Shown here: piece by piece, positions 3,135-23,651 of the stretch
Layout of the letters: every line of letters begins with the position of its first letter
Numbering within the stretch: position 1 is the first letter of the stretch
Assembly: GCA_026991215.1 (NCBI GenBank)
Contig: JALXBY010000244.1
Coordinates: 1-50,296 of the forward strand
Direction of reading: 5' to 3'
From: Anaerolineales bacterium
GTDB taxonomy: Bacteria > Chloroflexota > Anaerolineae > Anaerolineales > DRMV01
Length of the DNA stretch: 50,296 nt
Notes under the pieces: generated by a model
What the model was told of the DNA's origin: nothing
Databases searched by the model: none
The model's input: only the letters and a program-made list of their open reading frames with translations
Position numbers and translations under genes: made by a program

Positions 3135-3144
3135 CCGTGGTCTG

Positions 3145-4260
3145 CTAACCCTGGAAGGTATCTGCCCGGAACCCAAAAATTGTCACAGCCCGTTGCAAGC
3201 GGGGTTCCCATACCGCAATGTGGGGGATGCGTCGCGCCAGGGCCTGTGCATACGTGCCGTAGACCCAGCGTGGCAGTCGGCCCCAAAGAATGACGGAACG
3301 CATGGCTTTGGGCCAGTTGGGTTCAGGTAAAGTGGTGGGCATGAGAAAGCCGCGAAGTTGGATTCGCAGAAGCCACCGTCCCGCGTCCACGGGCTCCATG
3401 TGAAGGAGCACGTCCTTTGTGCCTGAAGTATCCACCTGGGGCAGGTGGACCCATCCCAAATGGGCATCAAAGACCGCCATGGGAGCGGGCGCCACATGCG
3501 CCGCTATGGCCGCGGCCAGCCAGGTCGGTCCGCGACCGTACAGGGATACAGGTCCACGCGGAATCACTCGAAGCAGACGAGGGAGGTCCTCTGGAGTCCA
3601 CCAGGCAGGTAAAGGTTTCCCCAGGGTGCGGGCCAGCTCCCGCTCACTAAGGAACGGATACGGTGCGGTTTTCCGATGCAGGGCTTCCAGGTCTTCCTCC
3701 CGGAGGCGGAACAAGGCAAACACCCGGCGGGCTAAAGCCTCAAAGGTCTTTCCCAGGCGGGGATGGTGCCGGTCCAGCCCGGTAATGGTTCCGGTGAGAT
3801 ACGGATGCGTCCCCGCGAGGACATCCTCCCCCTGAAGGCGGCTTTCCAGGACAGCAAGGAGGGAGAGGTCCGTGGCGCGAATGTGGGCCATCCAATATTC
3901 CCGTTCCTCGGGTGTACGGTAAAGCAAGATACCGTGGGTACATGCCCGAAGGATTTCCCACTGTTCACCCCGTGGCCGTCCGCCCATATCCACCAGGAGC
4001 GGGGTGTGCCGGTGCTGGAGAAGCGTCACCATGCGTCGTACCAGGTCCGGCGTATAACGGCCTTTGGCCGCAAGACGCAGGGAGAGCACCTTATTTCGGG
4101 GCCCTTCATAAAACCAGTTCCCTTCGCCATCCGGCGCGGTGCGCAACAGATAATGGGCGAGACCCGCCCGATATAAACGCCGGCTGAGGTGATACGCCAA
4201 TACGGACTTGCCACTATGCGGTGGCCCCATGACCAATAAGGCGGGGAGATTTAAGCCCAT
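3145..4260 (-). CDS. csx3: P-loop NTPase fused to a C-terminal Csx3-like (cA4 ring-nuclease family) domain, preceded by a second partial Csx3-like motif
   Basis: 371 aa. It has Walker A GPPHSGKS (res 12-19) and Walker-B-like PLLVDMGG. Res 285-371 (LLHMEPVDAGRWLLRIQL...VILWGRLPRWVYGTYAQALARRIPHIAVWEPRLQRAVTI) matches, from memory, A. fulgidus Csx3 (...VVISGRGPIWLHCFLAHKYHHTPFVAVYDPRLGAVVV). A second copy of the motif, YGRGPTWLAAAIAAHVAPAPMAVFDAHLGWV, lies at res 241-271. Confidence 0.65.
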   Translation of the reverse strand: MGLNLPALLVMGPPHSGKSVLAYHLSRRLYRAGLAHYLLRTAPDGEGNWFYEGPRNKVLSLRLAAKGRYTPDLVRRMVTLLQHRHTPLLVDMGGRPRGEQWEILRACTHGILLYRTPEEREYWMAHIRATDLSLLAVLESRLQGEDVLAGTHPYLTGTITGLDRHHPRLGKTFEALARRVFALFRLREEDLEALHRKTAPYPFLSERELARTLGKPLPAWWTPEDLPRLLRVIPRGPVSLYGRGPTWLAAAIAAHVAPAPMAVFDAHLGWVHLPQVDTSGTKDVLLHMEPVDAGRWLLRIQLRGFLMPTTLPEPNWPKAMRSVILWGRLPRWVYGTYAQALARRIPHIAVWEPRLQRAVTIFGFRADTFQG

Positions 4261-4332
4261 GGCACCCCCTTTCCCTATATCGGCATGGTATCATTCAAAC
4301 ACATCATTTTGAGCCTCCGAAGAGGAAAAAAC
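4261..4332. promoter_or_regulatory. 72-nt divergent control region between the csx3-fusion gene and the CARF-LuxR / cas operon
   Basis: This is the only sizeable non-coding gap in the CRISPR island. It contains TGGTATCAT (extended -10-like, 4286-4294, + strand) and the direct repeat ATCATT-N7-ATCATT (4290-4308). GAGGA (4322-4326) lies 6 nt before the ATG at 4333. Confidence 0.35.
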
Positions 4333-5253
4333 ATGCTGGGGGAAAGGCTTCTGGCCTCCTTGGGAGGCCAACCTCAAATTTTGACTTTTACGTTGGATGC
4401 TTTGCTAGCACGGGGAATCCGCCCGCAAGTGGTGGAAGTTGTCTTTCCGGGAGGAAACCCCGTCTACCAAGCCGCTTTTCGTCGGCTTCAACGTGAATTT
4501 ACGCGCTATCAAGCATACCAATCCATTCCTTTGCAGGCCTGTAGCCTTACAGACCGAGACGGCCATCCTCTTCCGGATTTACTTTCTGATTTGCATTTAG
4601 ATGAAGCCTGGCAACAGGTGCGTGACCGCGTACGTACGCTGAAAGCCGAAGGTTGGCGTTTGCATTTTAGCATTACCGGCGGCCGCCGTGCGCTGGGCCT
4701 GATGCTCTACGCCGCGGCCATGACCTATGGCTCGCCCCAGGATAAGGTCTGGCACATCTACACCCCGCCCGAATGGCTGGCCCAGGTCAAGGATGGCGCG
4801 CGCATGCACCTGCCCCAGGGCACGGTGCGGTTGTTGGAGATTCCCTTCGTGCCCTGGACCGCGTATTTCCCCGGTTTGCGAAGCCTGTTGGAGATGTCCC
4901 CGGAAGTGTTGCGTCGGTTGATGGGGGAAGGGCTGGATGAGGAAACCCAACGCCGTTGTGCCCGGGTGTGGGCGCGGCTGACCCCTCGCCAGAAAGATGC
5001 GCTACGGGCCTTGGCCACCACGGAAACCCGGGCCGAAGCCGCGCGGGCCATGGGCGTCGACCTGGATACCCTGGATTCCCATCGCAAGGCCATTCTGCGG
5101 GTGTGCCGCGCGGCCTGGCCGGAGGCCAGGGTGGATTTGCGCTTTGTGCGCCGGGTCTTCCGGCTGTGGCTGACCGCCACTAACGGCCTCCCCACTTTGC
5201 GGGGAGATTTTCAGGAGGAGATGGGGATGGAAACTACGAATTTTTCCTCATAA
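4333..5253 (+). CDS. CARF (NE0113/TIGR02584-like) domain fused to a LuxR/FixJ-type HTH: predicted cOA-responsive transcription regulator
   Basis: The start is placed at the internal ATG with an SD; the track start at 4285 has none. N-terminal SLGGQPQILTFTLDAL and SITGGRRALG are the two hallmark CARF/NE0113 motifs. Res 216-257 (LTPRQKDALRALATTETRAEAARAMGVDLDTLDSHRKAILRV) fits the LuxR-type HTH pattern. Confidence 0.7.
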   Translation: MLGERLLASLGGQPQILTFTLDALLARGIRPQVVEVVFPGGNPVYQAAFRRLQREFTRYQAYQSIPLQACSLTDRDGHPLPDLLSDLHLDEAWQQVRDRVRTLKAEGWRLHFSITGGRRALGLMLYAAAMTYGSPQDKVWHIYTPPEWLAQVKDGARMHLPQGTVRLLEIPFVPWTAYFPGLRSLLEMSPEVLRRLMGEGLDEETQRRCARVWARLTPRQKDALRALATTETRAEAARAMGVDLDTLDSHRKAILRVCRAAWPEARVDLRFVRRVFRLWLTATNGLPTLRGDFQEEMGMETTNFSS

Positions 5254-5281
5254 AGTCATTCTTGGTCAGGGAGGTTTTGCC

Positions 5282-5449
5282 ATGGCGGATGAATGGCTGG
5301 AGCACCTTTTGGAAAGGCCTTCGTCCACGGCCCGCCAGATGCTGGAACAACGCACCGGCATGCAGGTTCTCTCCCTCAGCGACCTGCCGGCCTTTCTGGA
5401 AGCAGCCATGCGGGCGTGGGTGGAGGCGCAAGCCGAGCCCACATCCTGA
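5282..5449 (+). CDS. Hypothetical 55-aa acidic protein directly upstream of cas10
   Basis: My own translation gives MADEWLEHLLERPSSTARQMLEQRTGMQVLSLSDLPAFLEAAMRAWVEAQAEPTS*. GGGAGG (5269-5274) lies 7 nt before the ATG, and the stop is 15 nt before the cas10 ATG. It is below the 60-aa cutoff of the ORF track. Confidence 0.45.
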   Translation: MADEWLEHLLERPSSTARQMLEQRTGMQVLSLSDLPAFLEAAMRAWVEAQAEPTS

Positions 5450-5464
5450 ACTTTAGGAGGTTGT

Positions 5465-7090
5465 ATGAGCCAGAAAAACGTACTTCTCCAAGGCGATGTA
5501 GACGCCATCAAATCCTATGTATTTGAGGCTTCCGGGCTACCCCAAATTCGCGGTGGCAGTCAACGGCTCATCAAATGTGAGCAAGAAGTGGAAAAGTTGG
5601 TAGAACAGCGGGGAGGGCGCACGATTTATTGCGGAGGAGGTGGTTTCCTGTTTGAAATACCTGCGGACGAAGCAGAAAATCTCAAACGCGAAATCGAGCG
5701 CATCTACCTAAAGTACACCCAAGTGGCTACTGTGACGGTAGTGTATGAAGACGCTCCTGAGCTCCCTCTTCCCGAGCCAAACATCACGGATGGCTGGGCA
5801 GGTCGTCTGGTCAAGGCCCATCAGGAAGCCCAGAGCGCCGGCGAATTTGCCCGTCGCACCGCGTTCCTGGCCGCGAGGTTGCGGGAGGCAAAACAACAAA
5901 AGCAGGTCGTACCCTTTATTGAAGCCTTCCCCTTCGGTAAGCGGTGTGAGATTTGCGGTAAGCGGGTGGCGGAAAGGAAGGTGACTTACACCCAAAGCGG
6001 GATGTTTGAAACGAAACATGTGTGTCGTGTGTGTTACCGGAGACATCGCACAGGTCGTATATGCCGCCACCGTGGTTTTGAGCGATTCTTAGAGAAGAGG
6101 AGATATAACTTACCATCCACTCCTCCCAAGGATGTGAACGAACTGGCTGCAAGTGCACGACGCCCTTATGTGGCCTTTCTCTATGCTGATGGGAACAACG
6201 TCGGCGACCTGTTACAGAAGGTCAAAGACGAGAATGAATATGCAGTCCTATCCAAGGCCCTAACAGAGGGCACAGAACAAGCCCTGTACGAGGCCCTTTG
6301 GGAGGTCTGCCAAAAGCCACTGGAACAAGAGAAAGCCTGGCCCTTTGAAATCCTCAACATCGGCGGTGATGACGTTACCCTGCTTATACAAGCCGGGTAT
6401 GCCTGGGATGTGGCCGTGGCGTTTCTGGGGAAATTCGAGCAATATGTACAAGAGAAGGTGAAGGATAATCTCGGTTATTGGCCCGCGGCTTGGCCCATGC
6501 CTATTACCGCTTCGGTGGGTATTGCTATCGCCGATGCCAAACACCCCGTGTGGTATCTGGAAGCGCTGGCCACCGACCTGCTCAAGAAAGCCAAAGTCAA
6601 GGCCCGGCAGGCGGAAACAAGCGCCATCAACTTCCTGTGGTTGCCCAACGCCATTGCCATTACCAGAGCCGAAGCCGTCACCGAGCAATACAAAGTGGGC
6701 GATTTTCATCTGACCGCACGGCCTTTTACCCTGGCGCAAGCGAGAAAGATGCAAGATGTGGTCAATATCCTCGCTTCATGGCCCCGCAGCCTGCGCCATC
6801 GGTGGGGCAAGGCCCTGGAACGCGGGCGTTGGACCGCTCTCTCCCAAATCCTTTATGACCTGGCCCGACGGCGGAACGGTGAGCATCGTGAAAAGGTGGG
6901 AAGATTCATCGATGCCTTAGAAGACTTGGCCACGACGTTTCAGGCTGAGCGGGAAGACGAGGCCCCCATTTATCTCTGGTGGCCCACCGAGGAAAATGGG
7001 CGCCGCATCTGGAAAACGCCTTTGCTGGACGCCTTGGAACTGGCCGAACTTCGCGCCATGCGGTCGGATATTCAAGAGGAGGGCGACTAA
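5465..7090 (+). CDS. cas10: Cas10 large subunit, compact (541 aa), no HD domain, intact GGDD cyclase motif
   Basis: AGGAGG lies upstream. The N-terminus starts directly with the Palm1-type motif LLQGDVDAIKSYVF...IRGGSQRL. A treble-clef Zn finger is present (C161-x2-C164...C187-x2-C190; nt 5945-6034). The Palm2 motif is ILNIGGDDVTLL, with GGDD at aa 300-303 (nt 6362-6373). Confidence 0.88.
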   Translation: MSQKNVLLQGDVDAIKSYVFEASGLPQIRGGSQRLIKCEQEVEKLVEQRGGRTIYCGGGGFLFEIPADEAENLKREIERIYLKYTQVATVTVVYEDAPELPLPEPNITDGWAGRLVKAHQEAQSAGEFARRTAFLAARLREAKQQKQVVPFIEAFPFGKRCEICGKRVAERKVTYTQSGMFETKHVCRVCYRRHRTGRICRHRGFERFLEKRRYNLPSTPPKDVNELAASARRPYVAFLYADGNNVGDLLQKVKDENEYAVLSKALTEGTEQALYEALWEVCQKPLEQEKAWPFEILNIGGDDVTLLIQAGYAWDVAVAFLGKFEQYVQEKVKDNLGYWPAAWPMPITASVGIAIADAKHPVWYLEALATDLLKKAKVKARQAETSAINFLWLPNAIAITRAEAVTEQYKVGDFHLTARPFTLAQARKMQDVVNILASWPRSLRHRWGKALERGRWTALSQILYDLARRRNGEHREKVGRFIDALEDLATTFQAEREDEAPIYLWWPTEENGRRIWKTPLLDALELAELRAMRSDIQEEGD

Positions 7091-7750
7091 ATGGTGCATC
7101 TCAAAATCGCCTTGCGTCTCAAATGGCGAACCGCGTTCCACACCACAGGCAACCGCTGGCGATGGGGCGCGGACAAGGCCCTGGTCCAGCGATATGACGA
7201 CACCTATGTACTCCCTGCCACCTCCCTCAAAGGTGCCCTGCGAGACCAGGCTGAACAATTGCTACGTGGCCATGTGCACATCTGTAATGCACCCGACCCC
7301 GGTCAAATGTGCTCGGATCTTGAGAACTTGTGCTTAGTCTGTCGGGTCTTTGGCAACCCCCGGCGGCCTTCTCTCTTACGATTTCAGGACGGGGTTTTGA
7401 GGAGAAAGAATATAGGCGAGATAGAGACCCAAATCCGCGCCGGTGTAGCCATCAGCCGACGCCGTCGTGCAGCGGTTCCCCAGCGGTTGTATTTTGTGGA
7501 AACCACCGTGGCAGGCCCCGTGGAAGCCCAGACAGTTATCGAAGGCTTCTTTCCTTCTCAACAAGAGGCCGAAGAGGCCGCGGCCCTGGTAGTTTTGGCG
7601 GCCCGGATGCTCCCGGCGTTGGGCGCGGGGCGTACCCGCGGCCTGGGTTGGCTGGAAGCCATTGAGACCGAATGCACGATGGACGGCCAGCCGTTAGCCG
7701 GGACGGCGCTGGAACGCTATTGGAACCGGTGGTTAGGAGGCGGCCAATGA
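7091..7750 (+). CDS. cas7: Cas7-family RAMP (Csm3/Cmr4-like)
   Basis: The ATG immediately follows the cas10 TAA. Motifs present are GADKALV...LPATSLKGALRD, CRVFG and the glycine-rich loop GAGRTRGLGW. Confidence 0.85.
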   Translation: MVHLKIALRLKWRTAFHTTGNRWRWGADKALVQRYDDTYVLPATSLKGALRDQAEQLLRGHVHICNAPDPGQMCSDLENLCLVCRVFGNPRRPSLLRFQDGVLRRKNIGEIETQIRAGVAISRRRRAAVPQRLYFVETTVAGPVEAQTVIEGFFPSQQEAEEAAALVVLAARMLPALGAGRTRGLGWLEAIETECTMDGQPLAGTALERYWNRWLGGGQ

Positions 7751-8985
7751 AGCCGATATGGTTGAAAATTACCCCCGAGGAGCCCCTGGTGCTGGGTTCG
7801 GTGCGGCCCGATGCCCAATTTCTGACCACCCGCGCCTACATTCCCGGCCGCCTGTTGCGGGGTGCCTGGGCCGAGTGGCTCAAAACACAAGGCGAGGAAG
7901 ATGAGGGCATTCTCGCTCAAGTCAAAAAACTGCGAATCTGGAATTTCTACCCCGCGGTGGATGATGGCCAGTTATTGTACACGTTACCCCTCCCCCTCAC
8001 GGCCATGACGTGCAAGCACGAATCGGGCTTCCAGACCGCCTTCCTGTCTAAGAACAAAGGGCACGGGGTGGTAGATACCTTGCTCCCCCAACTGGCCTAT
8101 CACTTGTTGCGCGAAGCCGGAGCCCAAATGACCGCCCCCTTCGCCCTTACATGTGCCCAATGTGATGGCCGGATGGAACCGGCAGAAGGCTTCTACGGCG
8201 TATATGAAGCCCATGGCAGGGTGGGTTACGAGCAATTTCGTCCTCGGTACCATGCCCAAACCAAAGTGGCCTTAAGCCGCTTCCGTCGGGCTTCCCAGTT
8301 TCAGATGCTTTACACCGTGAACGCACTCGCGCCCCAAGCCCCGGCGGTGATAACAAGCAACAAAAAGGATGAGCCCAAAAACAAGTCTGTGGTGTTCCTG
8401 GGGCGAGTGTACGGGGACCCACAAGCCGTACAAGAACTGCGGCAGGCCCTGGACCATGTAGCCATCGGCGCACTGCACACCCGAGGGTATGGGCGGGTGC
8501 ACGTTGAGGAGAGCGACCCCCCTCAATGGCCTGGCCTCAAGGAGCGGGTCGAAACCTTCAACCGCATTTTGACCGATCTCTGGCAGGACCTTAAACGCCT
8601 CGCGGCCAACCCGGACGGACTTCCGGAGAAGCCCGACGGCCTGTACTTCTCGGTGGACTTGCTTTCGCCCGGTGTGTTCGTCAACCACGGCCTGCCCGAA
8701 CTGGTTCCGGAGTTGTACATCAACGGTCGCGTCCTCCGGCCCATCTGGTGGGCGACTCGACCGGATATGGCCAGCGGCTGGTCCACCGCGTGGGGCCTGC
8801 CCAAGCCCACCAACCTGGCCGCACGCATGGGGAGCGTCTACGTCTACCGCTGGGACGGTAGCATGGACGACCTGCTTCCCGCACTGCAAGCCCTGGAAGC
8901 CGAAGGCCTGGGCCTGCGCCGAGACGAGGGCTTCGGCGAAATCTTGGTGTGTCATCCCTTTCATCAGGAGGTAGAAGAGCGATGA
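7747..8985 (+). CDS. csx10: Csx10-like Cas5-family RAMP (type III-D)
   Basis: The start is taken at the ATGA overlap with the upstream stop (MKPIWLKITPEEPLVLGS...YIPGRLLRGAW). G-rich loops HTRGYGRV and RRDEGFGEILV are present. Its 412-aa size and its position after cas10-cas7 match csx10 in III-D loci. Confidence 0.7.
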   Translation: MKPIWLKITPEEPLVLGSVRPDAQFLTTRAYIPGRLLRGAWAEWLKTQGEEDEGILAQVKKLRIWNFYPAVDDGQLLYTLPLPLTAMTCKHESGFQTAFLSKNKGHGVVDTLLPQLAYHLLREAGAQMTAPFALTCAQCDGRMEPAEGFYGVYEAHGRVGYEQFRPRYHAQTKVALSRFRRASQFQMLYTVNALAPQAPAVITSNKKDEPKNKSVVFLGRVYGDPQAVQELRQALDHVAIGALHTRGYGRVHVEESDPPQWPGLKERVETFNRILTDLWQDLKRLAANPDGLPEKPDGLYFSVDLLSPGVFVNHGLPELVPELYINGRVLRPIWWATRPDMASGWSTAWGLPKPTNLAARMGSVYVYRWDGSMDDLLPALQALEAEGLGLRRDEGFGEILVCHPFHQEVEER

Positions 8986-9392
8986 AGAAGTTAAATTCGA
9001 GAACCCGTCAGGCACTCGCGACGAAAGAGGACGAGTTGGTGCAACAGGCCCGCGAAGTGGCGAAGGCATTATGGGAGTCCTTAAACGAAAAACAGCGGAA
9101 AGACGGTAAGGTGCGCCAACTGCGCAACATCCTGGAAGTCGCCAAGAGCACCGACTCATGGAAGGCTTTGGCCTTGTTTGTCCGATACCAGGCTGCACGC
9201 ACTACAGATAACATTCCCCGAGATTGGGCAGAGTATCTGATTGATGAGATGGAGAACTTAACGGACACTGCCAATGAGATTGCAAAACAAACCCATGATG
9301 ACCCTAAGACAATTCACCTGGAAATGGTCACCCGCGTTTTGGGCCACGCGGTGCGCTGGCATCTCTGGGATGTGAAAAGCCAGGAGGGATAA
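8982..9392 (+). CDS. cas11: Cas11 small subunit (Csm2/Cmr5-like), all-helical, 136 aa
   Basis: The ATGA overlaps the csx10 stop. The sequence is helical with a KVRQLRNILEVAK segment resembling the Csm2 (T/S)QhRKh motif. The position is canonical. Confidence 0.65.
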   Translation: MKKLNSRTRQALATKEDELVQQAREVAKALWESLNEKQRKDGKVRQLRNILEVAKSTDSWKALALFVRYQAARTTDNIPRDWAEYLIDEMENLTDTANEIAKQTHDDPKTIHLEMVTRVLGHAVRWHLWDVKSQEG

Positions 9393-9395
9393 GCC

Positions 9396-10193
9396 ATGTT
9401 TGACACCTTTAACAACCGTGTGGTGCTGCGGGCCACTTTGGAAATGCAAACTGCCCTTTCCGTGGGTAGCCGCATTTCGCTGGAGCCCGTGGGCACGGAC
9501 CTACCCGTTATGAAAGGGCCGGATGGTCTTCCGTTCATCCCCGGCTCGTCCATCAAGGGCACGGTACGGGCGCTGACCGAGCGCATTTTGCGCAGCCTTC
9601 CCAACGGGGAGGAAATTGGTCTATGGGCCTGTGACCCCTTCGCAGACCCGTGTGTGGATCGGAACCAGGCCCGCATCTGGCTGCAGGATGAAGCAACTGA
9701 GCATCTGGTTTGGGATGAAGCCTGCACCGCGTGCCGCATCTTTGGTTCCCCCTGGCTGGCCAGCCGGGTGTCCTTTAAGGATGCCTACCTGGAGAACTCC
9801 GAAGACCTGCCTGTGGTCACCCAGATACGCGATGGCGTGGGCATTGACCGGGACCTGGGCGCGGCCCGCCAGGGCATCAAGTACGACTTTGAGGTGGTTG
9901 TGCCAGGGGCCAGGTTCGGCATTGAGATTCTGACCGAAAACCTGGACGATTGGGAGTTGGGCCTTCTCCTTTCGGTTTTGCGGTTCTGGCAAGAAGGCCA
10001 GTTGCCCTTGGGCGGCAAAGTGACTCGCGGCCCCGGCTGGGGAAAACTGAAGGACCTGCGCCTGGAGCGAATTGACCAAACCAATTTGGTGAACTACCTG
10101 ACAGGCGGCCAACCGGCCCAGGACAGCCCGGAGAAATACCTTCAGGCCTTCCGCGACTACCTGAGCCAGCAACTGAACCAAGGGGAGGGATGA
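9396..10193 (+). CDS. cas7: Cas7-family RAMP (Csm3-like, probable target-RNA-cleaving subunit)
   Basis: Motifs present are VGTDLPVMKGPDGLPFIPGSSIKGTVR (Asp loop plus the GSSxKG motif), CRIFGSPW and LGGKVTRGPGWGKL. Confidence 0.88.
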   Translation: MFDTFNNRVVLRATLEMQTALSVGSRISLEPVGTDLPVMKGPDGLPFIPGSSIKGTVRALTERILRSLPNGEEIGLWACDPFADPCVDRNQARIWLQDEATEHLVWDEACTACRIFGSPWLASRVSFKDAYLENSEDLPVVTQIRDGVGIDRDLGAARQGIKYDFEVVVPGARFGIEILTENLDDWELGLLLSVLRFWQEGQLPLGGKVTRGPGWGKLKDLRLERIDQTNLVNYLTGGQPAQDSPEKYLQAFRDYLSQQLNQGEG

Positions 10194-10196
10194 CCC

Positions 10197-11078
10197 ATGC
10201 ATAAGACCCGATACAACGCCCTGCACTTGACCGTGCGCATTCGTCCTAAAGGCCCCTTGCTGATTAAGGCCGGCGGTATCTCCGCCAACCCCGCATTGCC
10301 GGATATGCAATTCGTGCGCACGTTTCACCCTGACCGAGGCGAAACAGTCTACATTCCCGGTTCATCCCTCAAAGGGGTTGTGCGGGGATTTGTGGAGAAG
10401 GCCCTGCGCACCTTTGATGCCCGAGACAGTTGGCGTTGGGCCTGTCCAACATTCCCCGATGAAGCGGAGAGTTGTGCCCGACGCTTGCAGAATGAGACGG
10501 ATACAGCATCGGTGTACCGCCAATCCTGCGGTGCCTGCCGCATCTTCGGCCATACCCGGCTGCGGGGCCGGCTTTCCTTCACCGATTTCTTCCCCGTGGA
10601 AGAAGTGCGCACCGAAATCCGCTACGGTGTGGCCATCTCGCGGCTGACCCACGCGGTGGCCCATGGGCCTTTTGAAATGGAAGTAGCCGTCTCGGGGACG
10701 TTTGAAGGGCACCTGGTGCTGGAGAACTTTGAAATCTGGCAGTTGGGACTGGTGGCTACGGCCCTGGCCGCTATGAATCAAGGCCTGGTGAAAGTGGGCT
10801 TTGGCAAAAACCGGGGATTCGGTGAGGTAGAAGTGGAGGTGCGCGAGGCCTGGGTGGACGAAGTTGTTGTGAACTATCACCCCGAGCGCCTCCGGGGCCT
10901 GAGGGCTTTTGTGGACAACGCAACGGCGCAGGCCTATGGTTTGTTCCCACCGGCCGATTTGGACCTGCAAAACGGCCCTGAATTCACCCGTGAAGAACCG
11001 TTGGGCGTGTACACGCGGCGGGTATACGGCACGCAGGGCTGGAATGAATTAGCCCGGCTTGCCATCCAGGCACTGTGA
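10197..11078 (+). CDS. cas7: Cas7-family RAMP (Csm3/Csm5-like)
   Basis: Motifs present are LPDMQFVR...VYIPGSSLKGVVRG, CGACRIFGHTRLRG and GFGKNRGFGEVEV. Confidence 0.88.
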   Translation: MHKTRYNALHLTVRIRPKGPLLIKAGGISANPALPDMQFVRTFHPDRGETVYIPGSSLKGVVRGFVEKALRTFDARDSWRWACPTFPDEAESCARRLQNETDTASVYRQSCGACRIFGHTRLRGRLSFTDFFPVEEVRTEIRYGVAISRLTHAVAHGPFEMEVAVSGTFEGHLVLENFEIWQLGLVATALAAMNQGLVKVGFGKNRGFGEVEVEVREAWVDEVVVNYHPERLRGLRAFVDNATAQAYGLFPPADLDLQNGPEFTREEPLGVYTRRVYGTQGWNELARLAIQAL

Positions 11079-11089
11079 GGGTTGGAGCC

Positions 11090-11533
11090 ATGCAGGGATT
11101 CGTCTACTACCTGACAGGCACCAGCGAAGAGCTGCAACGCCTTGCCCAAACCCATCTGGGCGAGGCTGTCTGGCATTGGGTCGCCGACGCTGCCCGTCTC
11201 ACTGTGGGAGAAGGCTACCCTGCAGACTGGAAAGAGCAGGGGGCGGTTTTCAATACCCAAGGCGAATTGTGTTGGCGCGCGTTGGGTAATGAGCAGTACG
11301 AGGCCCTCTTGCTCACCACAAAGGCCTTGCCCAACCACAAAGTGCTGCCCGGCGAATGGACGGTAGAGGAACAGACGCTTTATCTGCAGGACTTGCGAGA
11401 AGCCCGGGTTTTGCCTCAATTCGCCCAGTATCCCACAGGAAAGTCAACAGGCAAGATTCGGATCCGGCTCTACCGTCGCAATGGTGTGCCCACCTTTGTG
11501 AGTTTGTGTGAATTCCTTGAGGAGGAAGCATGA
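11090..11533 (+). CDS. csx19: Csx19 (all1473)-like type III-D associated protein
   Basis: A protein of 147-152 aa with no RAMP motifs sits exactly where all1473/csx19 sits in III-D operons, between the third cas7 and the last RAMP. The start is either the ATG at 11090 (GAGG 7 nt upstream) or the GTG at 11075 overlapping the upstream stop. The family assignment rests on position and size only. Confidence 0.5.
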   Translation: MQGFVYYLTGTSEELQRLAQTHLGEAVWHWVADAARLTVGEGYPADWKEQGAVFNTQGELCWRALGNEQYEALLLTTKALPNHKVLPGEWTVEEQTLYLQDLREARVLPQFAQYPTGKSTGKIRIRLYRRNGVPTFVSLCEFLEEEA

Positions 11534-12537
11534 TGGCACGGCGTTCTGAACCTGAACCCAAGCCCTTCTTCTGGGTCTTGCTGGACGAGTCTCCGCAGAA
11601 AACCCGGCCGGTGTTCCACGAAAAATTTGAGGGCTGGACAGGCCGTTTGGTTTGGGAGATTGAGGTGCTCTCGGACTACCTTTATGTGGGAAGCGGGAAC
11701 CTGGACTTGGTGCGGTTGCCCGATGGCCGCGAACAGGCCCGCTATGCCTTTGCCCGCCGGGATGGGCAGTTGGTGATACCCGCGACCAGTATCAAGGGCG
11801 CGGTGCGGGCAGTGTTTGAGGCCATCACAAACTCGTGCGTTTCTCAACGAAACCGTCGGGAGCGGCCCCTTTCTACTGCTCATATGGCATGCGGTCTGGT
11901 TCGCAAAGGGAAAGAGGAGAAGGCCCGACTCTGCCCGGCCTGCCGCGTTTTTGGCACAACGGGCTACCGCGGCCGGGTGCATTTCTCCGACGCGGTCCCG
12001 GTAGGCGAGGTGCGCACCGAGACCATCAAAATCGCTGACCTGTGGCCCCCGCGCCAAGTCCGTAAGGCGCGTAAGTTTTATCAAACCAAGGCTTTCCAGA
12101 AGCAAGACCTGCACCCTCGCAAGAACACCCGTTTTCTGGAAGTTGTCCCCAAAGGAAGCCGTTTCCGTACCACCCTGTACTTTGAAAACCTGAGTGGTGC
12201 AGAAATGGGCGCACTGATGAGGGCGCTGGGCTTGGGCCTCCATTCCAGCAAGCCCAACACGATTGTTTACGCCTTCCCCCTCAAATTGGGCGGGGCCAAG
12301 CCGCGGTGTTTAGGAAGCGTCCGCTTTCATCCCCGTGGTGTATTCATTCAAACATCCCCGTCTACGGACGCAGATGATCTTTGGCAGCGGTTCCTTCAAT
12401 CTGCTCCAGGGGGGGTGAAAAACTTGCTCCTCCAGTGGCTCCAATCCGAGGCATTGTTGGACGAAGAGGCCTGGCACCAATTCCGTGCCGAAGCCCAACC
12501 CCAGACGGATGAAGCCTGCCCGCGGGAGGTGTACTGA
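11530..12537 (+). CDS. cas7: Large Cas7-like RAMP (TIGR03986-like, III-D terminal RAMP)
   Basis: The ATGA overlaps the upstream stop. Motifs present are LVIPATSIKGAVRAVFE, CPACRVFGTTGYRG and KLGGAKPRCLGSVRF. Confidence 0.8.
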   Translation: MMARRSEPEPKPFFWVLLDESPQKTRPVFHEKFEGWTGRLVWEIEVLSDYLYVGSGNLDLVRLPDGREQARYAFARRDGQLVIPATSIKGAVRAVFEAITNSCVSQRNRRERPLSTAHMACGLVRKGKEEKARLCPACRVFGTTGYRGRVHFSDAVPVGEVRTETIKIADLWPPRQVRKARKFYQTKAFQKQDLHPRKNTRFLEVVPKGSRFRTTLYFENLSGAEMGALMRALGLGLHSSKPNTIVYAFPLKLGGAKPRCLGSVRFHPRGVFIQTSPSTDADDLWQRFLQSAPGGVKNLLLQWLQSEALLDEEAWHQFRAEAQPQTDEACPREVY

Positions 12538-12872
12538 TGAGCCGCGAGGATGAACTGGTGACCCTGGCGGAACAAATCGCCGATGGCCTGCCGGGGGTCA
12601 CGCGCAACGAGTGGATGAAGTGGGTGCAGATTCTTCAGGCCTATCAAGCCCAATATCGCGATGCGCTTCAACGAGCCATCCATTACGCACAACGTTTATC
12701 CAAAGACCCCACAATGCGGCCGGCCATACAGCGGGCCCACCGCTTGATTGCGCAAACCATGCAGCGCTATGCCCGGCGCGTTGCCTCTTTGCCTCGTACC
12801 GAACAACAGCGCCTGTTCGGTTATGTGGCCTGGAGCCTGGTTGTTCAGGGTAAACAGGGGCGGAGGCGATGA
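12537..12872 (+). CDS. Hypothetical 111-aa helical protein, operon-coupled to the effector genes
   Basis: Its ATG shares one nt with the upstream TGA. The sequence looks all-helical (MSREDELVTLAEQIADGL...QRLFGYVAWSLVVQGK). I recognise no motif. Confidence 0.6.
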   Translation: MSREDELVTLAEQIADGLPGVTRNEWMKWVQILQAYQAQYRDALQRAIHYAQRLSKDPTMRPAIQRAHRLIAQTMQRYARRVASLPRTEQQRLFGYVAWSLVVQGKQGRRR

Positions 12873-12875
12873 GGA

Positions 12876-13595
12876 ATGCCACGATTTGTTTTCGATACAA
12901 ACGTACTCATCAATTATATTCGCTATGATGATCAAGAGGTGCATGATGCTTTAACAGTAGCCGCGGATTTGGGGGAAATTCTTATCTCACAGATATCTGT
13001 TTTAGAAATGTGGGCACCAGTGAAATGGAAGATCAAGGAAGAATCTCCTAACTTGGTGCCTTTATGGATTCGGAAATTAGAGGAAGGTGAGGTTCCTGCA
13101 GGAATGCAGGAGGTGCTTTTGCATGAATTAAGCGAATATCAACAACCTCTTCCAAACCAGTTTTTTGTAGATACTCTTCGAAAAGGTCGAAGATGGTCTA
13201 TTTCGGACGAAAATAAACAGCTGATTTCAGTTGTTGAATACACAGGCAATTCTCTTATCCTAATGTCTCCGGATATACGCCGCAGTCAAGTGGAACAGGA
13301 AATATCTACGCTAAAACATATTTGTGAGACGTTCGACGCTCAAATTATCCCCGTCTCAGAACGCGCCCAATATTATGCAGAGCTTATAGTTCAGCACTAT
13401 AGGGATACCCTGGGCAGAAACACCATTACGGATAGCCTCATTATAGCAACAGGACTCGAACATGACGCATGGTTGGTGACTTATGATAATAATTGGGAAA
13501 AAGTTAAGAAAGATATGAAAAACAGATCTTTGCCTTTACCTGAAATGAAAGTAATTGATCCTGCACGCGTGGCTCACGGGGAGGTGCATTCATGA
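12876..13595 (+). CDS. PIN-domain (VapC-like) nuclease with a roughly 100-aa insertion; AT-rich gene
   Basis: PIN acidic positions are FVFDTNVLI (D7), SVLEMW (E44), TITDSLIIATG and LVTYDNNW. At 239 aa it is far longer than the roughly 130 aa of a canonical VapC. Hand-counted GC on 60-nt samples is about 37-38%, against 53-58% in neighbouring cas genes. Confidence 0.75.
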   Translation: MPRFVFDTNVLINYIRYDDQEVHDALTVAADLGEILISQISVLEMWAPVKWKIKEESPNLVPLWIRKLEEGEVPAGMQEVLLHELSEYQQPLPNQFFVDTLRKGRRWSISDENKQLISVVEYTGNSLILMSPDIRRSQVEQEISTLKHICETFDAQIIPVSERAQYYAELIVQHYRDTLGRNTITDSLIIATGLEHDAWLVTYDNNWEKVKKDMKNRSLPLPEMKVIDPARVAHGEVHS

Positions 13596-14608
13596 CCAAA
13601 GTCAAAAACATCCTTCTGGCCACCCTGGGTACCGCACCTGCCGTAATTACAGAAGCCGTAGATTTGTTGCGGGAAGAAGGCGTTCACATTGATGGCATCT
13701 CGCTATTCTTGACCGAAGATTCCGATGTGCGGGATAGCTTTTCTTTGCTCGCCCAACACCTTCCTGCCCACGATGGAATTGTGTGGATTTCACCTATTCA
13801 GATCGGCGTGTACACCGATATCGACAGCACACAGGCTGCGGCCGAATTTCTCCAACTGGCCAGCCAATACCTCAAGACCCTACGAGATGCAGGCCATCGT
13901 GTGTATGTATCCATTGCAGGCGGGCGTAAAGCGATGTCTGCGCTTCTCGCGCTGGCCGTGCAATTTTTCGGCGCCGAGCGACTTTTCCATATTTGGGTTC
14001 CACCCTGGTTGGAAGAAGAAGGTGAAATCCATGAACTGCGCAAGTGGAAGCATTTACCTGAGGAATTGACCCGAAAACTGCATCCTACCTTGAACGCCGA
14101 GCCAACTGACCGCCCGCGTTTGGTTACTCTTCCTGTTATCGGACTCTTTCCTTTTCTTGAAGATATCCGCCTTGCCTTAACGGAGCAGGGCGAAGTGCCA
14201 CGCGACATTCGTCGCTTGCTCCGTGAAAACGGCCTACTTACTTCCCAGGGCGAGGTCACCGAACTGGGGCGGCTCATTAGCCAGATTCTTGAAAGCGTTG
14301 AGGGGTTGCCACCGGCCCGCCAGGAGGAATGCAAAGTCCATATTGCTCCGCATCATTACAAGGACCGACTGGAGAAATTTGCCTGGCAACTGTGTGGGCG
14401 TTTTCCCTTTATCACGGAAATTCAAAGCGGAGAGTGGCGAAGCGGTGAAGGCAAGATCAAAACCGAGCCTCCAAATCGTATCCGAATCTTTGAGCCCTTA
14501 GGCACCGACTTCCCCTTGCAATTGATTCTGACCACGACTGCCAAAACGTCGGGCCAATTGGAAGCTGCCCGGCGAGCGATTGAGCGATTCTTAAAAGCAC
14601 GGAGGTAA
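13592..14608 (+). CDS. CARF (NE0113/TIGR02584-like) protein with a wHTH-like linker and an unassigned C-terminal domain
   Basis: The ATGA overlaps the PIN stop. CARF motifs are LLATLGTAPAVITEAVDLL and SIAGGRKAMSALLA. Res 195-235 are HTH-like (RDIRRLLRENGLLTSQGEVTELGRLI). Res 245-338 match nothing I recognise. Confidence 0.7.
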   Translation: MTKVKNILLATLGTAPAVITEAVDLLREEGVHIDGISLFLTEDSDVRDSFSLLAQHLPAHDGIVWISPIQIGVYTDIDSTQAAAEFLQLASQYLKTLRDAGHRVYVSIAGGRKAMSALLALAVQFFGAERLFHIWVPPWLEEEGEIHELRKWKHLPEELTRKLHPTLNAEPTDRPRLVTLPVIGLFPFLEDIRLALTEQGEVPRDIRRLLRENGLLTSQGEVTELGRLISQILESVEGLPPARQEECKVHIAPHHYKDRLEKFAWQLCGRFPFITEIQSGEWRSGEGKIKTEPPNRIRIFEPLGTDFPLQLILTTTAKTSGQLEAARRAIERFLKARR

Positions 14609-14610
14609 CT

Positions 14611-15585
14611 ATGGGTGTCTATCACCTGATGGGTCTGGGGCGCTCACCAGGTGCCATTACTGGCCCTATCTCTTATCTGGCCTCCCGCTATCAGCGGTGG
14701 AACGAGGAGGACCGGGCCTTTTTCGCCCGCTCAGGGGAGGTTCGTCAACGGGAAGCAGGCGAGAAGGTGGGCGATATACAGGCCGTTGTGTTGTTTACGA
14801 CTCGGGAGATTCTCAGCGGAACCGTTCCAGCGTTTGACTATGTGGACAATCCACTTGGACGGATCGCAAAGGACCCGCGGGTGTCTGGCGGGCCGATGAA
14901 GGAGGTGCTTCGTCGGTTATTGCGCCGTGAATGGCCTGCCATCAGCGGCGGTCGTCCCGAAGGCACCGTCTTCTGGTGCGAAGTCGATCGCCGGGATATC
15001 CGCACCACCTATGAGCGAGTGATCTGGGTCGTGGCCGCGCTGGCCGGCGTCGGCGGGCAAGGAAAAGAGATGTGGGTCAACTTGACGGGAGGTAACAACG
15101 TGATCAACTTCGCCCTGGAACTGGCTGCTACCCTCTCCGGTGCTGTGGCGCGGCTTTATTACGTGCAGGCGGAAAACCCGGACGCTGAGAAATGTGTGCG
15201 CTTTACAGCGGAGGACGGATACTGGGTGGAATTACCGGTTATGCCCTTGGCATTGAGCCCTTTGACACGCGCTATCATTGATTTGCTTGCGCAAAAAGGC
15301 CCTATATCTTTGGGCGATCTGTACAGCATCTTGAGGAACAAGTACTGGAACTTAAGCTATGGACTCACATCGGAGGAAGTTCTGCGGGAGGCCTATCTGG
15401 CTCCAATGTGGAAACAAGGCCTTATCGTTGAGACACTTGAAGGCTATAAAATTGGCCCACAATGGGAATTGGTGCAACCTTACCAAGAATTATGGGAAGA
15501 AGCCCTCAGATGCAATGAGACCATCGAACAACTGGCCCAAACAGAGCTTTGGCTCGAACGCGAAATCATTACATGGGAGCGCTAA
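14611..15585 (+). CDS. CARF domain protein with C-terminal winged-helix (Csa3-like architecture)
   Basis: CARF-type motifs are the N-terminal LMGLGRSPGAITGPISYL and NLTGGNNVINFALELA. The C-terminal LTRAIIDLLAQKGPISLGDLYSILR...MWKQGLIVETLEGYKIGP looks like a wHTH. Confidence 0.6.
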   Translation: MGVYHLMGLGRSPGAITGPISYLASRYQRWNEEDRAFFARSGEVRQREAGEKVGDIQAVVLFTTREILSGTVPAFDYVDNPLGRIAKDPRVSGGPMKEVLRRLLRREWPAISGGRPEGTVFWCEVDRRDIRTTYERVIWVVAALAGVGGQGKEMWVNLTGGNNVINFALELAATLSGAVARLYYVQAENPDAEKCVRFTAEDGYWVELPVMPLALSPLTRAIIDLLAQKGPISLGDLYSILRNKYWNLSYGLTSEEVLREAYLAPMWKQGLIVETLEGYKIGPQWELVQPYQELWEEALRCNETIEQLAQTELWLEREIITWER

Positions 15586-15588
15586 CCC

Positions 15589-15987
15589 ATGCTCATCCTC
15601 AACTTTGCCCACCCCCTGACCGACGAACACCTGGCGCAAATCGAGAAACTCACAGGCCAGAAGCCCGAGCGGGTGGTAGTCATCAACAGCCAGATTGACC
15701 CTCAGCAGCCCCTGGCACCACAAGTCTCGGCCATGGCCGATGCTGCGGGATTGACCCCTGAAGAGTGGCAAACCCTTCCCCTCCTCATCAACCCGCCCGC
15801 GCTCAACTTTAGCGCGGTCGCGCTCATCGCGGAATTGCACGGACGCATGGGCTACTTCCCGCCCTGCATCCGCATGCGGCCCGTGGTCGGCCCAGACGGC
15901 CAGCGTGTGGTTCCGCCCCGCTTCGAGGTGGCGGAGATTTTGAACCTGCAGGCCATTCGGGATGAGGCGCGCAGGTCCCGTGCATAG
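15589..15987 (+). CDS. Small CRISPR-associated protein, possibly Csx15 family (candidate ring nuclease)
   Basis: This 132-aa ORF is the last gene of the operon. From memory, MLILNFAHPLTDEHLAQIEKLTG...LIAELHGRMGYFP...FEVAEILNLQAIRDEAR resembles the cyanobacterial Csx15-type proteins that accompany type III loci. This has not been verified. Confidence 0.4.
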   Translation: MLILNFAHPLTDEHLAQIEKLTGQKPERVVVINSQIDPQQPLAPQVSAMADAAGLTPEEWQTLPLLINPPALNFSAVALIAELHGRMGYFPPCIRMRPVVGPDGQRVVPPRFEVAEILNLQAIRDEARRSRA

Positions 15988-16014
15988 CCAGCCGCAGAAG
16001 GCAGTGCGCGCCCA

Positions 16015-20607: not shown

Positions 20608-20653
20608 GCGTTCAGCCTCCTCCACGATGGGGTGCCTTCGATTGTACTTGATG

Positions 20654-20716
20654 TGGTTGGTGGTCGATGGTCGATGGTCGTTGGTCGTTGGTCGGTGGTC
20701 GGTGGTCGTTCGTCGG
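20654..20716. repeat. Heptanucleotide tandem repeat, 9 units (TGGTTGG TGGTCGA x2 TGGTCGT x2 TGGTCGG x2 TGGTCGT TCGTCGG)
   Basis: Read directly and period exactly 7. It lies in the divergent tdk / pfpI-like intergenic region. Confidence 0.9.
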
Positions 20717-21377: not shown

Positions 21378-21387
21378 CGGCGGGCGG

Positions 21388-21478
21388 CAGTCCGCAGTCA
21401 GCGGTCGGCAGTCGGCGGTCGGCTAACTGCTAACTGCTAACGGCCAACGACCATCGACTAACGACCATCGACGAATGA
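21388..21478. repeat. Heptanucleotide tandem repeat, 13 drifting units (CAGTCCG CAGTCAG CGGTCGG CAGTCGG CGGTCGG CTAACTG x2 CTAACGG CCAACGA CCATCGA CTAACGA CCATCGA CGAATGA)
   Basis: Read directly and period 7 throughout. It fills the gap between the PfpI-like gene and the COG2403 gene. Confidence 0.9.
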
Positions 21479-21495
21479 CGAAGGAGGAATCTCCA

Positions 21496-22842
21496 ATGAC
21501 CCAACGGGAAAGCGCAAGGCCCCGAAGGGTGGTCATTCTGGGCGCGGCAGGCCGGGATTTCCACAACTTCAACGTGTTCTTCCGGGAGAACCCTGCCTAC
21601 CACGTGGTGGCCTTTACCGCGACGCAGATTCCCAACATCGAAGGCCGTCGGTACCCGCCGGAACTCGCGGGACCCCGTTACCCCGAAGGCATCCCCATCT
21701 ACCCCGAAAGCGACCTCCCCCGCTTGATTCGGGAGCACGACATCGACGTCGCGGTCTTTTCCTACAGCGACGTCTCCCATGAATACGTGATGCACCGCGC
21801 GGCCATAGCCCAGGCCGCGGGCGCGGATTTCTGGCTGCTGGGGCCAAAGCGCACCCAACTCAAGGCGGCAAAGCCCGTGGTCGCGGTCACCGCGGTGCGC
21901 ACGGGCGCGGGCAAAAGCCCGACCACCCGCCGGGTGGCCCGCCTGCTCCGTGATTGGGGTTACCGGGTGGTCATCGTCCGGCATCCCATGCCCTATGGCG
22001 ACCTCCGCAAGCAGGTAGTGCAGCGCTTCGCCACCTTCGAGGACCTGGACCGCTACGAGTGCACCATCGAGGAACGGGAGGAGTACGAGCCGCACCTGCG
22101 CAACGGCATGGTGGTGTACGCAGGCGTGGACTATGCCCGCATCCTGGAACAGGCCCAGGCCGAGGCTGACGTCATCCTCTGGGACGGGGGCAACAACGAC
22201 CTGCCCTTCTTCGTGCCCGACGTGCACATCGTGGTGGCCGACCCCTTGCGCAAGGGCCATGAGGCCACCTATTACCCTGGCGAGACCAACGCGCGCATGG
22301 CCCACATCGCGGTCATCACCAAGGTGGATACCGCGGCCTACGAGGACGTGCTGGCCGTGCGGCAGCGCCTTCTGGAACTGAACCCGGACCTGCGCATCGT
22401 CGAGGCCGCGATGCCCTTTACGCTGGAAGGGGACGTGCACGCGGTCATGGGCCGCCGCGTGCTGGCCGTGGAAGACGGCCCCACGGTGACCCACGGTGAG
22501 ATGGGCTACGGCGCGGCGTACCTGGCCGCGCGGCGCTTCCATGCCCAACCGGTGGACCCCAGGCCCTTCGCGGTGGGTTCGATTCGTGAAGCCTACGAGC
22601 GTTACCCTCACCTGGGGCCGGTGCTCCCTGCCCTGGGGTATGGCCGGGAGCAGATTCGGGAACTGGAGGCGACCATCCGCCGCGCCCAGGTGGACGCGGT
22701 GCTCGCGGCCACGCCCATCGACCTGCGGCGGGTGGTGCAGGTGGACGTGCCCGTGTTCCCCGTACGGTACGAACTGCAAGAGATTGGCCAGCCCACGTTG
22801 GCGGAACTCCTCAAAGGCATGCTCCCCCGCGAGCAGGATTAA
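21496..22842 (+). CDS. COG2403-type P-loop protein (cyclic 2,3-diphosphoglycerate synthetase-like / predicted GTPase)
   Basis: Motifs present are VVILGAAGRDFHNFNVFFRENP...FTATQIP, the P-loop AVRTGAGKSPTTR, VRHPMPYGDL, CTIEEREEYEP and WDGGNNDLPF. The family is recalled from memory. The start is set at the second ATG, with AAGGAGGA 7 nt upstream. Confidence 0.6.
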   Translation: MTQRESARPRRVVILGAAGRDFHNFNVFFRENPAYHVVAFTATQIPNIEGRRYPPELAGPRYPEGIPIYPESDLPRLIREHDIDVAVFSYSDVSHEYVMHRAAIAQAAGADFWLLGPKRTQLKAAKPVVAVTAVRTGAGKSPTTRRVARLLRDWGYRVVIVRHPMPYGDLRKQVVQRFATFEDLDRYECTIEEREEYEPHLRNGMVVYAGVDYARILEQAQAEADVILWDGGNNDLPFFVPDVHIVVADPLRKGHEATYYPGETNARMAHIAVITKVDTAAYEDVLAVRQRLLELNPDLRIVEAAMPFTLEGDVHAVMGRRVLAVEDGPTVTHGEMGYGAAYLAARRFHAQPVDPRPFAVGSIREAYERYPHLGPVLPALGYGREQIRELEATIRRAQVDAVLAATPIDLRRVVQVDVPVFPVRYELQEIGQPTLAELLKGMLPREQD

Positions 22843-22863
22843 AGGCCCTTCAGGACCTATGGG

Positions 22864-23571: not shown

Positions 23572-23627
23572 CGACCACCGACGATCGACCACTGACGACC
23601 ATCGACCAACGACCATCGACTGATAAA
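23534..23627. repeat. Heptanucleotide tandem repeat, about 13 units (CCATCGA CCAACGA CCATCGA CCACCAA CCACTGA ...)
   Basis: Read directly. It is the reverse-complement family of the 20654 tract (NCGACCA vs TGGTCGN). It overlaps the 3' end of the Nudix gene. Confidence 0.85.
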
Positions 23628-23651
23628 TCGATGAAAATTCCGGTTCGAGGC

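Follow-up and report, generated by a model that had tools for sequence, protein, structure and literature searches.

A type III-D CRISPR-Cas island without array or cas6 in an Anaerolineales contig: an unfused effector module with a cyclic tetra-adenylate gene set and, probably, guides from elsewhere in the genome

How can a CRISPR effector module that has neither an array nor a cas6 gene beside it be supplied with guides, and is such a module still at work? The question is raised by a gene island at positions 3,145 to 15,987 of contig JALXBY010000244.1 from an Anaerolineales bacterium (assembly GCA_026991215.1; Chloroflexota), of which the whole analysed stretch of 50,296 nucleotides (nt) is here called the window. 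The reading favoured here, at a probability of about 0.7, is that the island is a complete and functional type III-D module of unfused subunits, that it travels with a set of genes for cyclic tetra-adenylate (cA4), that it was acquired horizontally, and that its guides come from another locus of the same genome.

The island consists of a co-oriented run of tightly packed or overlapping genes (4285-15987) and one divergent gene (3145-4260, minus strand) on the map of open reading frames (ORFs; Table 1). By profile matches and gene order the core effector is of subtype III-D, in the unfused layout referred to as III-D1; that layout, and those of III-Dv and III-D2, are defined in PMC13294483. Families were assigned with three libraries of profile hidden Markov models (HMMs), namely NCBIfam, Pfam and PADLOC, the PADLOC models being derived from CRISPRCasTyper (CCTyper). 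The order cas10, cas7, csx10, cas11, cas7, cas7, csx19 and RAMP (repeat-associated mysterious protein), given for III-D in an earlier sequence-only reading of the window, was borne out by these profiles, and the HMM check on the eight effector proteins that had been proposed there upheld the subtype, with Csx10 matched at full length above cut-off. Cas7, Cas5 and Cas11 are encoded separately, as four RAMP genes plus a csx10 and a cas11 gene of their own. Further features of III-D are the presence of Csx10 itself (identical in the window to the NCBI-called protein P0001, 412 aa), a Cas10 devoid of its HD domain, Csx19 inside the effector operon, and a Cas11 of III-D type. Loss of the HD domain from Cas10 is said to be typical of III-D, as Makarova and colleagues reportedly set out in 2015.

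Some subunits are remote from their family models. Csx19 scores 14.4 bits against NCBIfam TIGR03984 (cut-off 35), a model that 20 of 21 family members match; its identity stayed below threshold when sought in NCBIfam or the PDB alone and was settled by the PADLOC/CCTyper model. The terminal RAMP lies below the TIGR03986 cut-off of 161.35 and has 335 aa against the 568 positions of that profile, and Cas11 (8982..9392) has no match in Pfam or NCBIfam. Each of the three backbone Cas7 proteins possesses a candidate catalytic aspartate: Asp28 of the first (7091..7750) is kept in at least 80% of 46 homologues, Asp35 of Csx7 in at least 80% of 51, and Asp36 of the third (10197..11078) in at least 95% of 41.

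The hallmarks of cyclic oligoadenylate (cOA) signalling are found at the locus, as an intact Cas10 GGDD site and as genes for CARF and ring-nuclease proteins. The Cas10 protein begins straight at Palm1 (GDVDAIKSYVF), carries a zinc finger (CxxC...CxxC) and has its GGDD at residues 300-303; no HD domain was matched in it by Pfam or NCBIfam, and its alignment to the Cas10 model of PADLOC starts at residue 5. Both the GGDD and the Palm1 motif (GDVDAIK) are conserved across the related loci examined. The nearest solved Cas10 proteins are all weak matches: that of III-Dv (8s9t_C, the best, E about 1e-3), that of III-D2 (9wxh_B) and that of S. solfataricus (8BMW, E 0.0067). As a III-D2 protein is among them, SAM-AMP (S-adenosylmethionine-AMP) was considered as the messenger in place of cOA; it was judged unlikely, because the first acidic residue of Palm1 is Asp as in cOA synthases, the GGDD motif is present, CorA is absent and the accessory genes belong to cA4 families.

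These accessory genes surround the effector on both sides. Csx3/Crn3, Crn1 and Csx15 are cA4-specific families (PMC12409355, PMC13148439), the biochemistry of Csx15 being treated in PMC13148439, and the one locus has three genes of ring-nuclease families (AAA-Csx3, Csx14 of the Crn1 family, and Csx15) together with two proteins that join CARF to a helix-turn-helix (HTH). In a published survey, more than one ring nuclease occurred in only about 4% of the type III loci that had any. The AAA-Csx3 fusion has a Walker A motif (GPPHSGKS) at its N-terminus and a C-terminal cA4 ring nuclease domain of Crn3/Csx3 type; Caur_2269 is the exemplar of its family, C3a67, the accessory families having been catalogued by Shah et al. 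2019. The CARF-HTH protein is a predicted cOA-responsive transcription regulator. Its gene starts at 4333 in an independent gene call, and the orthologue in a related locus (L135) has GerE/Sigma70_r4 matches.

Two poorly annotated accessory proteins, Csx14 and a 324-aa protein with a winged helix (wHTH), are predicted from structure models to be CARF proteins. The AlphaFold2 (AF2) model of Csx14 has a predicted local distance difference test score (pLDDT) of 87.9, and Foldseek matches it best to Cad1-CARF and to Sis0455 and Sso2081, both ring nucleases of the Crn1 family, with template modelling (TM) scores of up to 0.77 on the target; the matches were dominated by the CARF domain, and Foldseek gave no fold assignment for the C-terminal alpha/beta domain. 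The best Foldseek matches of the 324-aa protein (probability 1.0) are the Sis0811 ring nuclease (7pq3), Sso1393 (3qyf) and Csa3 (6wxq). Public records label this protein 'hypothetical' throughout, and it is 67-79% identical in loci whose Cas10 is only 46-53% identical. Together with Csx15 it forms the most conserved part of the cassette, above any effector subunit (64-79% where Cas10 shows 46-53%). The PIN gene has an insertion of about 90 residues relative to PIN homologues, and its stop overlaps the start of csx14; in a single homologue, P0309 (486 aa, from one contig), PIN and Csx14 are fused in this order. The best candidate for an output is the PIN nuclease in concert with Csx14, a link for which the fusion is weak evidence.

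What the island does not carry was searched for in the unique part of the window. The window is its own reverse complement, with a fold-back point at 25148/25149, and its unique part is 1-25148, which the sequence-only reading had already treated as such and which reverse-complement identity verified. This perfect inverted duplication is almost certainly an assembly artefact. The same sequence is found on two independent metagenome contigs of ENA sample ERZ23491050, L001 (8.2 kb) and L141 (12.7 kb), and also in ENA sample ERZ23491340, and the gene content of the window is therefore real; the two contigs stop near the window's true end and near the fold-back point. No CRISPR array was detected in 1-25148 by repeat search, Tandem Repeats Finder, an array finder of our own, a scan for two-copy mini-arrays, or Rfam, which returned no CRISPR-DR match. 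Our finder was validated on seven related loci, whose arrays it recovers. Likewise, profile scans found no match to cas6, cas1, cas2, cas4 or reverse transcriptase (RT) in any sizeable ORF of the unique half, and the Cas6 proteins of relatives gave no tblastn match in the window (best E 0.38). Five methods thus uphold the earlier report that the unique 25.1 kb has no repeats of CRISPR size, and the ORF scans and the tblastn search uphold the lack of cas6, adaptation genes and RT that had been reported with it.

The weight that had been placed on these missing parts was, however, not justified once relatives were compared. A search with Csx10 yielded hundreds of homologues, the closest named one being from Ardenticatena sp. 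(84% identity), and a set of 50 related loci was drawn from a scan of one genome per species. Arrays were found in seven of the 50. Of the 15 loci whose sequence extends at least 5 kb beyond the effector genes on each side, 12 have no nearby array and only three have one; lack of an array is therefore the rule in the clade and not a peculiarity of the window locus. Seven loci have a cas6 gene (TIGR01877, 134.7 bits) a short way upstream of cas10 or csx3 (L003, L007, L008, L010, L019, L026 and L049), of which L003 is the closest relative of the window (92% Csx10 identity), and type I genes (Cas3, a Cas8-sized protein and Cas7/DevR) directly follow the cassette in L007, L008, L010, L017 and L132, the last being an Ardenticatena contig, so that these five are composite III-D and type I loci. 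The cas6 genes just ahead of the cassette in relatives, and the type I modules that follow it in others, are the reason to favour supply of CRISPR RNAs (crRNAs) in trans. It was one of three options left by the sequence-only reading; the second, an orphaned module, is disfavoured by intact ORFs, motifs and selection (see below), and the third, a repurposed one, has no positive evidence in its favour.

Synteny shows the cassette kept entire in Chloroflexota, in Thermoflexus, Caldatribacterium and Fervidibacter, on Asgard archaeal contigs and also in Chloroflexus; many genomes of Chloroflexota, and of thermophiles beyond them, have it. The 111-aa gene belongs to what is kept, as do the genes for Csx14, the 324-aa CARF protein and Csx15, and in many cases the pair of AAA-Csx3 and CARF-HTH genes. 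The Thermoflexus loci encode a further protein of about 340 aa between cas6 and cas10 (L007 6596-7618, L008 7097-7639, L010 6495-7601), which has no family match and does not occur in the window.

The composition of the island sets it apart from its surroundings, as the sequence-only reading had held and as computed values confirm: its GC content is 0.572 as opposed to 0.658 and 0.679 in the flanks, and the GC content at third codon positions (GC3) is 0.54-0.78 in island genes and 0.79-0.86 in flank genes. The outlier within the island is the PIN gene (GC 0.414, GC3 0.371). Relatives of the cassette occur in differing contexts, next to an ABC transporter (L132), an aminotransferase and Crp (L135), or DeoR (L136). 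In L019, a metagenome-assembled genome (MAG) labelled Thermodesulfobacteriales, a cassette of 54% GC with 77% Csx10 identity stands in flanks of 38% GC, which reflects either a recent transfer between phyla or a binning or assembly chimera. The differing contexts, the contrast in GC and GC3, and the L019 cassette together support horizontal acquisition of a mobile cassette. A search of the borders for repeats, direct or inverted, and for tRNA genes and integrases found none, and hence no integration mechanism can be named. As to the borders themselves, the distance of 27 nt to the purH stop (15988-16014) given earlier is correct, whereas the gap to the P-loop kinase gene is 10 nt (3135-3144) and not 11.

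With only 3.1 kb between the island and position 1, an array, with or without cas6, might lie just beyond the true end of the contig. In three more distant relatives (L028, L030 and L032) an array indeed lies upstream of cas10, at 2-7 kb. The contig is also short, and the two independent assemblies stop at much the same points, an effect to which repeats often lead. The housekeeping flanks of the unique half (3.1 kb to the left of the island and 9.1 kb to the right) nevertheless have host-like GC3, and the cas6 genes of relatives belong to the cassette itself, where cas10 or csx3 comes next downstream, rather than standing past host genes. This alternative is unlikely, and an array lying past host genes would in any case still amount to supply in trans.

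A slightly smaller chance is given to the island being an orphaned remnant, which lost its array and cas6 on transfer or rearrangement and is now a non-functional relic. Such a loss would fit a module that is foreign by composition, that shows neither an array nor cas6 nor adaptation genes in 25 kb, and whose closest relative, L003, does have an upstream cas6. Decay is another matter. All 16 island genes are intact and are spaced as in an operon, and the ratio of nonsynonymous to synonymous divergence (dN/dS) against four relatives, a measure taken between lineages, is 0.05-0.33 in every comparable gene. The intact ORFs, the GGDD, Palm1 and Cas7 Asp motifs that are conserved across relatives, and these dN/dS values argue against a decaying remnant, as does the fact that most members of the clade have neither array nor cas6, including the Chloroflexus locus L136, in which only a two-copy candidate repeat is found upstream. 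Synonymous divergence is itself a mosaic along the operon. Against L002 and L003 the synonymous divergence (dS) is 0.24-0.36 for csx10 and 0.40 for csx7, while the intervening cas11 is saturated (proportion of synonymous differences, pS, 0.80-0.83) and cas10 and the first cas7 reach a dS of at least 1.0; a similar mosaic is seen against L132. This pattern suggests that cas10 and cas11 underwent gene-sized recombinational replacement.

Finally, guides could be matured independently of Cas6, by the PIN nuclease or a host RNase, or the complex could have been repurposed for non-CRISPR RNAs. The PIN protein matches C3a166, a family labelled 'possible crRNA processing', its gene takes the same slot in eight relatives (L007, L009, L012, L014, L015, L017, L019 and L136), and crRNA maturation that depends on RNase E is, according to the passage of PMC6546367 that cites it, known for a type III system without cas6 (Synechocystis III-Bv). 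A PIN nuclease in the place of Cas6 was rejected as the main reading, and this whole alternative is as improbable as a relic, since L007 and L019 have PIN as well as cas6, so that the two are not alternatives, many relatives without cas6 (for example L006, L008, L132 and L135) have no PIN gene either, the overlap of the PIN gene with csx14 and their one fusion point to a signalling output rather than to guide maturation, and the window holds no candidate locus for non-CRISPR guides.

In the favoured reading the island is seated between the housekeeping genes of a thermophilic, Ardenticatena-like Chloroflexota genome. The crRNAs would be transcribed and matured elsewhere in that genome, at a CRISPR locus that is most likely of type I and has its own Cas6, and would then load onto a complex of Cas10, Csx10, the Cas7 subunits, Cas11, Csx19 and the terminal RAMP. 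Once a complementary transcript is bound, the Cas7 subunits would cut the RNA, and the same binding event would induce the HD-less Cas10 to synthesize cOA, probably cA4, at its GGDD site. The CARF-HTH protein, the CARF-wHTH protein and Csx14 would read this cA4, and the PIN nuclease next to Csx14 would be the likeliest means by which RNA is degraded in response. Csx14 (as a member of the Crn1 family), AAA-Csx3 and Csx15 would remove or sequester the messenger.

Several points weigh against this scheme. The search for an array and cas6 covered the 25.1 kb of unique sequence at hand from this genome; the nearest entries in genome collections (90-92% Csx10 identity) are short contigs, and exact-protein look-ups with Cas10, the phosphoribosyltransferase of the left flank and the 324-aa protein led to no contig that reaches past the ends of the window. 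Most III-B, III-C, III-E and III-F loci are array-less according to Makarova et al. 2025, and III-D is not listed with them, so that a habit of trans supply is less well documented for III-D. The purifying selection is that which acted between lineages, rather than within the lineage of the window. No canonical cA4-activated effector (HEPN Csm6/Csx1, Can1/2, NucC etc.) was detected in the island, and the link of PIN and Csx14 to an output consists of adjacency and the one fusion protein from a single contig. An empty site, in which the P-loop gene adjoins purH, was sought by scanning metagenome contigs with purH; the best match was 58% identical and showed no flank synteny.

Among known systems, one of the closest to the cassette is its counterpart on two Chloroflexus metagenome contigs (L136/L137), where the same order is found, cas10-cas7-csx10-cas11-cas7-cas7-csx19-RAMP, followed by a gene for a 107-aa protein, PIN, csx14 and a CARF gene. 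Like the island, the Chloroflexus cassette stands between housekeeping genes and has no cas6, adaptation genes or multi-repeat array in 21 kb, only about 2 kb of which are upstream of cas10. Its Csx14, a protein named for Chloroflexus aurantiacus, is 55% identical to that of the window. The Chloroflexus PIN protein differs in having 173 aa and no insertion, and the last accessory gene encodes a Card1-type CARF protein in place of the CARF-wHTH and Csx15 proteins of the window. A thymidine kinase gene is found near the cassettes of both (54% identity), one common neighbour being too little for an ancestral position to be proposed. In Chloroflexus a 40-nt sequence, GCGCTTTACTCCCCGACGGGTCGCCAACACATTCGCAAAC, occurs twice (1548-1587 and 1628-1667), with the copies about 40 nt apart and about 400 nt upstream of cas10; it is possible that this is a one-spacer mini-array, which standard detectors would miss. 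The mini-array scan found nothing comparable in the window.

The domain order is also that of the III-Dv complex of Synechocystis sp. PCC 6803 (8S9T/8S9U; PMC11026444), which runs Cas10, Cas7-Cas5-Cas11, Cas7-Cas7, Csx19 and a Cas7 with an insertion; its Cas10 (575 aa) is short and HD-less like that of the window, and Csx19 is a subunit of the complex. In Synechocystis the subunits are fused into multi-domain proteins, whereas those of the window are all separate genes. Moreover, the Synechocystis locus has an array and a Cas6 of its own, unlike the window. The III-D system of Saccharolobus solfataricus (8BMW), the 'III-D1' reference, shares with the window several distinct, unfused Cas7 paralogues, although the archaeal Cas10 has 829 aa compared with the HD-less 541 aa of the window. 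Work from the White laboratory reportedly has the S. solfataricus system signalling with cA4. The III-D2 system of Gammaproteobacteria HyVt-522 (PMC13294483) has, as does the window, a short HD-less Cas10 (592-aa chain) and a PIN (VapC-like) gene. That system is further characterized by Cas7x3 and Cas7-5 fusions, a CorA effector, SAM-AMP and SAM-AMP2 as messengers and a Cas6 of its own (PMC13294483), from which the window departs in its unfused subunits, its lack of CorA, its canonical GGDD and its cA4-family accessories. Finally, array-less III-B, III-C, III-E and III-F loci, which use arrays elsewhere in the genome, are like the window in being interference modules without array, cas6 or adaptation genes. 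The III-D cassette is already on record, with annotation, among the public genomes of Chloroflexota, and all of its recognisable components belong to described families.

Table 1. Genes of the island in window coordinates, with the matches or records behind each assignment
Feature	Position	Strand	Evidence
AAA(P-loop)-Csx3 fusion	3145..4260	-	PADLOC C3a67 'AAA-Csx3' 266.6 bits (residues 5-362); Pfam Cas_csx3 43.9 bits (304-362)
CARF (NE0113/CARF3 family) with C-terminal LuxR/GerE-type HTH	4285..5253	+	Pfam Cas_NE0113 110.7 bits; PADLOC CARF3 243.9 bits
55-aa ORF between the CARF-HTH gene and cas10	5282..5449	+	gene call in independent assembly (L001 5243-5410)
Cas10, 541 aa	5465..7090	+	PADLOC Cas10 245 bits (residues 5-423); Pfam Cas10-Cmr2_palm2 74.5 bits
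Cas7 (RAMP), first backbone subunit	7091..7750	+	Pfam RAMPs 69.3 bits; PADLOC Csm3 'CAS-III-A,CAS-III-D' 68.2 bits
Csx10, the Cas5 and signature gene of III-D	7747..8985	+	TIGR02674 391.7 bits (cut-off 177.3), full length; PADLOC Cas5_IIId
Cas11 small subunit, III-D type	8982..9392	+	PADLOC Csm2 'CAS-III-D; effector_SS' 115.6 bits
Cas7/Csx7	9396..10193	+	TIGR02581 242.4 bits (cut-off 108)
Cas7, third backbone subunit	10197..11078	+	Pfam RAMPs 74.6 bits; PADLOC Csm3 120 bits
Csx19 (all1473 family), divergent	11075..11533	+	PADLOC PDLC01577 129.8 bits, E 1.6e-38
Terminal RAMP/Cas7-like, short TIGR03986 relative	11530..12537	+	TIGR03986 109.4 bits, 3 stretches; Pfam RAMPs 59.8 bits
111-aa conserved protein	12537..12872	+	conserved in at least 21 related loci, where it comes next after the final RAMP gene
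PIN-domain nuclease	12876..13595	+	Pfam PIN 45.1 bits, two stretches; PADLOC C3a166 39.7 bits
Csx14, predicted Crn1/Cad1-like CARF with C-terminal alpha/beta domain of about 95 residues	13592..14608	+	TIGR03642 109.1 bits (cut-off 90.35); PADLOC CARF5 476.8 bits, full length
Predicted CARF and winged-helix protein, 324 aa	14611..15585	+	AF2 pLDDT 81.6; PADLOC CARF3 94.1 bits
Csx15, cA4-binding sponge or ring nuclease family	15589..15987	+	NF040560 164.8 bits (cut-off 35); PADLOC Csx15 130.7 bits

Two small genes of the island fall outside the families named so far. The 111-aa protein has no weighty match in Pfam, NCBIfam, PADLOC or the PDB. Its profile-to-profile alignment with the Cas11 of the cassette (hhalign) has a probability of 59.5% and an E of 9e-05 over 96 columns, with a common C-terminal LGYVaW motif, and the complex may thereby have a second small subunit that resembles Cas11. 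The 55-aa ORF (5282..5449) found no family match in the profile searches and may not be a real gene.

The flanks of the island consist of housekeeping genes. To the left there are genes for a phosphoribosyltransferase, a cytidylyltransferase, a CopD-like protein and the P-loop kinase, and to the right purH is accompanied by genes for a CCA-adding enzyme, an HPRT-like protein, thymidine kinase, DJ-1, a NUDIX protein and TsaD. Heptamer tandem repeats (TGGTCGT, CGGCAGT, ATCGACC etc.) are encountered at 20653-20716, 21380-21472 and 23532-23620, around the genes at 21.4-23.6 kb. Here an ORF of 745 aa (21430-23667, minus strand), for which an exact-protein look-up gave no record, is probably spurious, since in an independent gene call the same stretch holds two genes on the plus strand, one of 448 aa and a NUDIX gene.

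A more far-reaching proposal for the clade as a whole can be made only tentatively, and its chances are well below even. The cassette would be a satellite module that lives on the crRNAs of a resident type I system, with a cA4-gated PIN RNase as its output, held under the CARF protein Csx14 in the manner of a toxin and antitoxin, the two being at times fused; the unusually large set of cA4 binders and degraders (Csx14/Crn1, AAA-Csx3, Csx15 and the two CARF-HTH proteins) would act as a buffer, and the 111-aa protein would be a second Cas11 for a specific position in the complex.

Taken alone, the locus matters little, as it is one more copy of a known III-D cassette. The survey of its relatives, however, extends the habit of a shared array, known for III-B, III-C, III-E and III-F, to a clade of III-D that bears Csx10 and often stands beside type I modules. 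The cassette also joins three ring-nuclease families without a classical cA4 effector, and its conserved pairing of PIN with Csx14, together with the unannotated 111-aa and 324-aa proteins, offers cheap targets for biochemistry.

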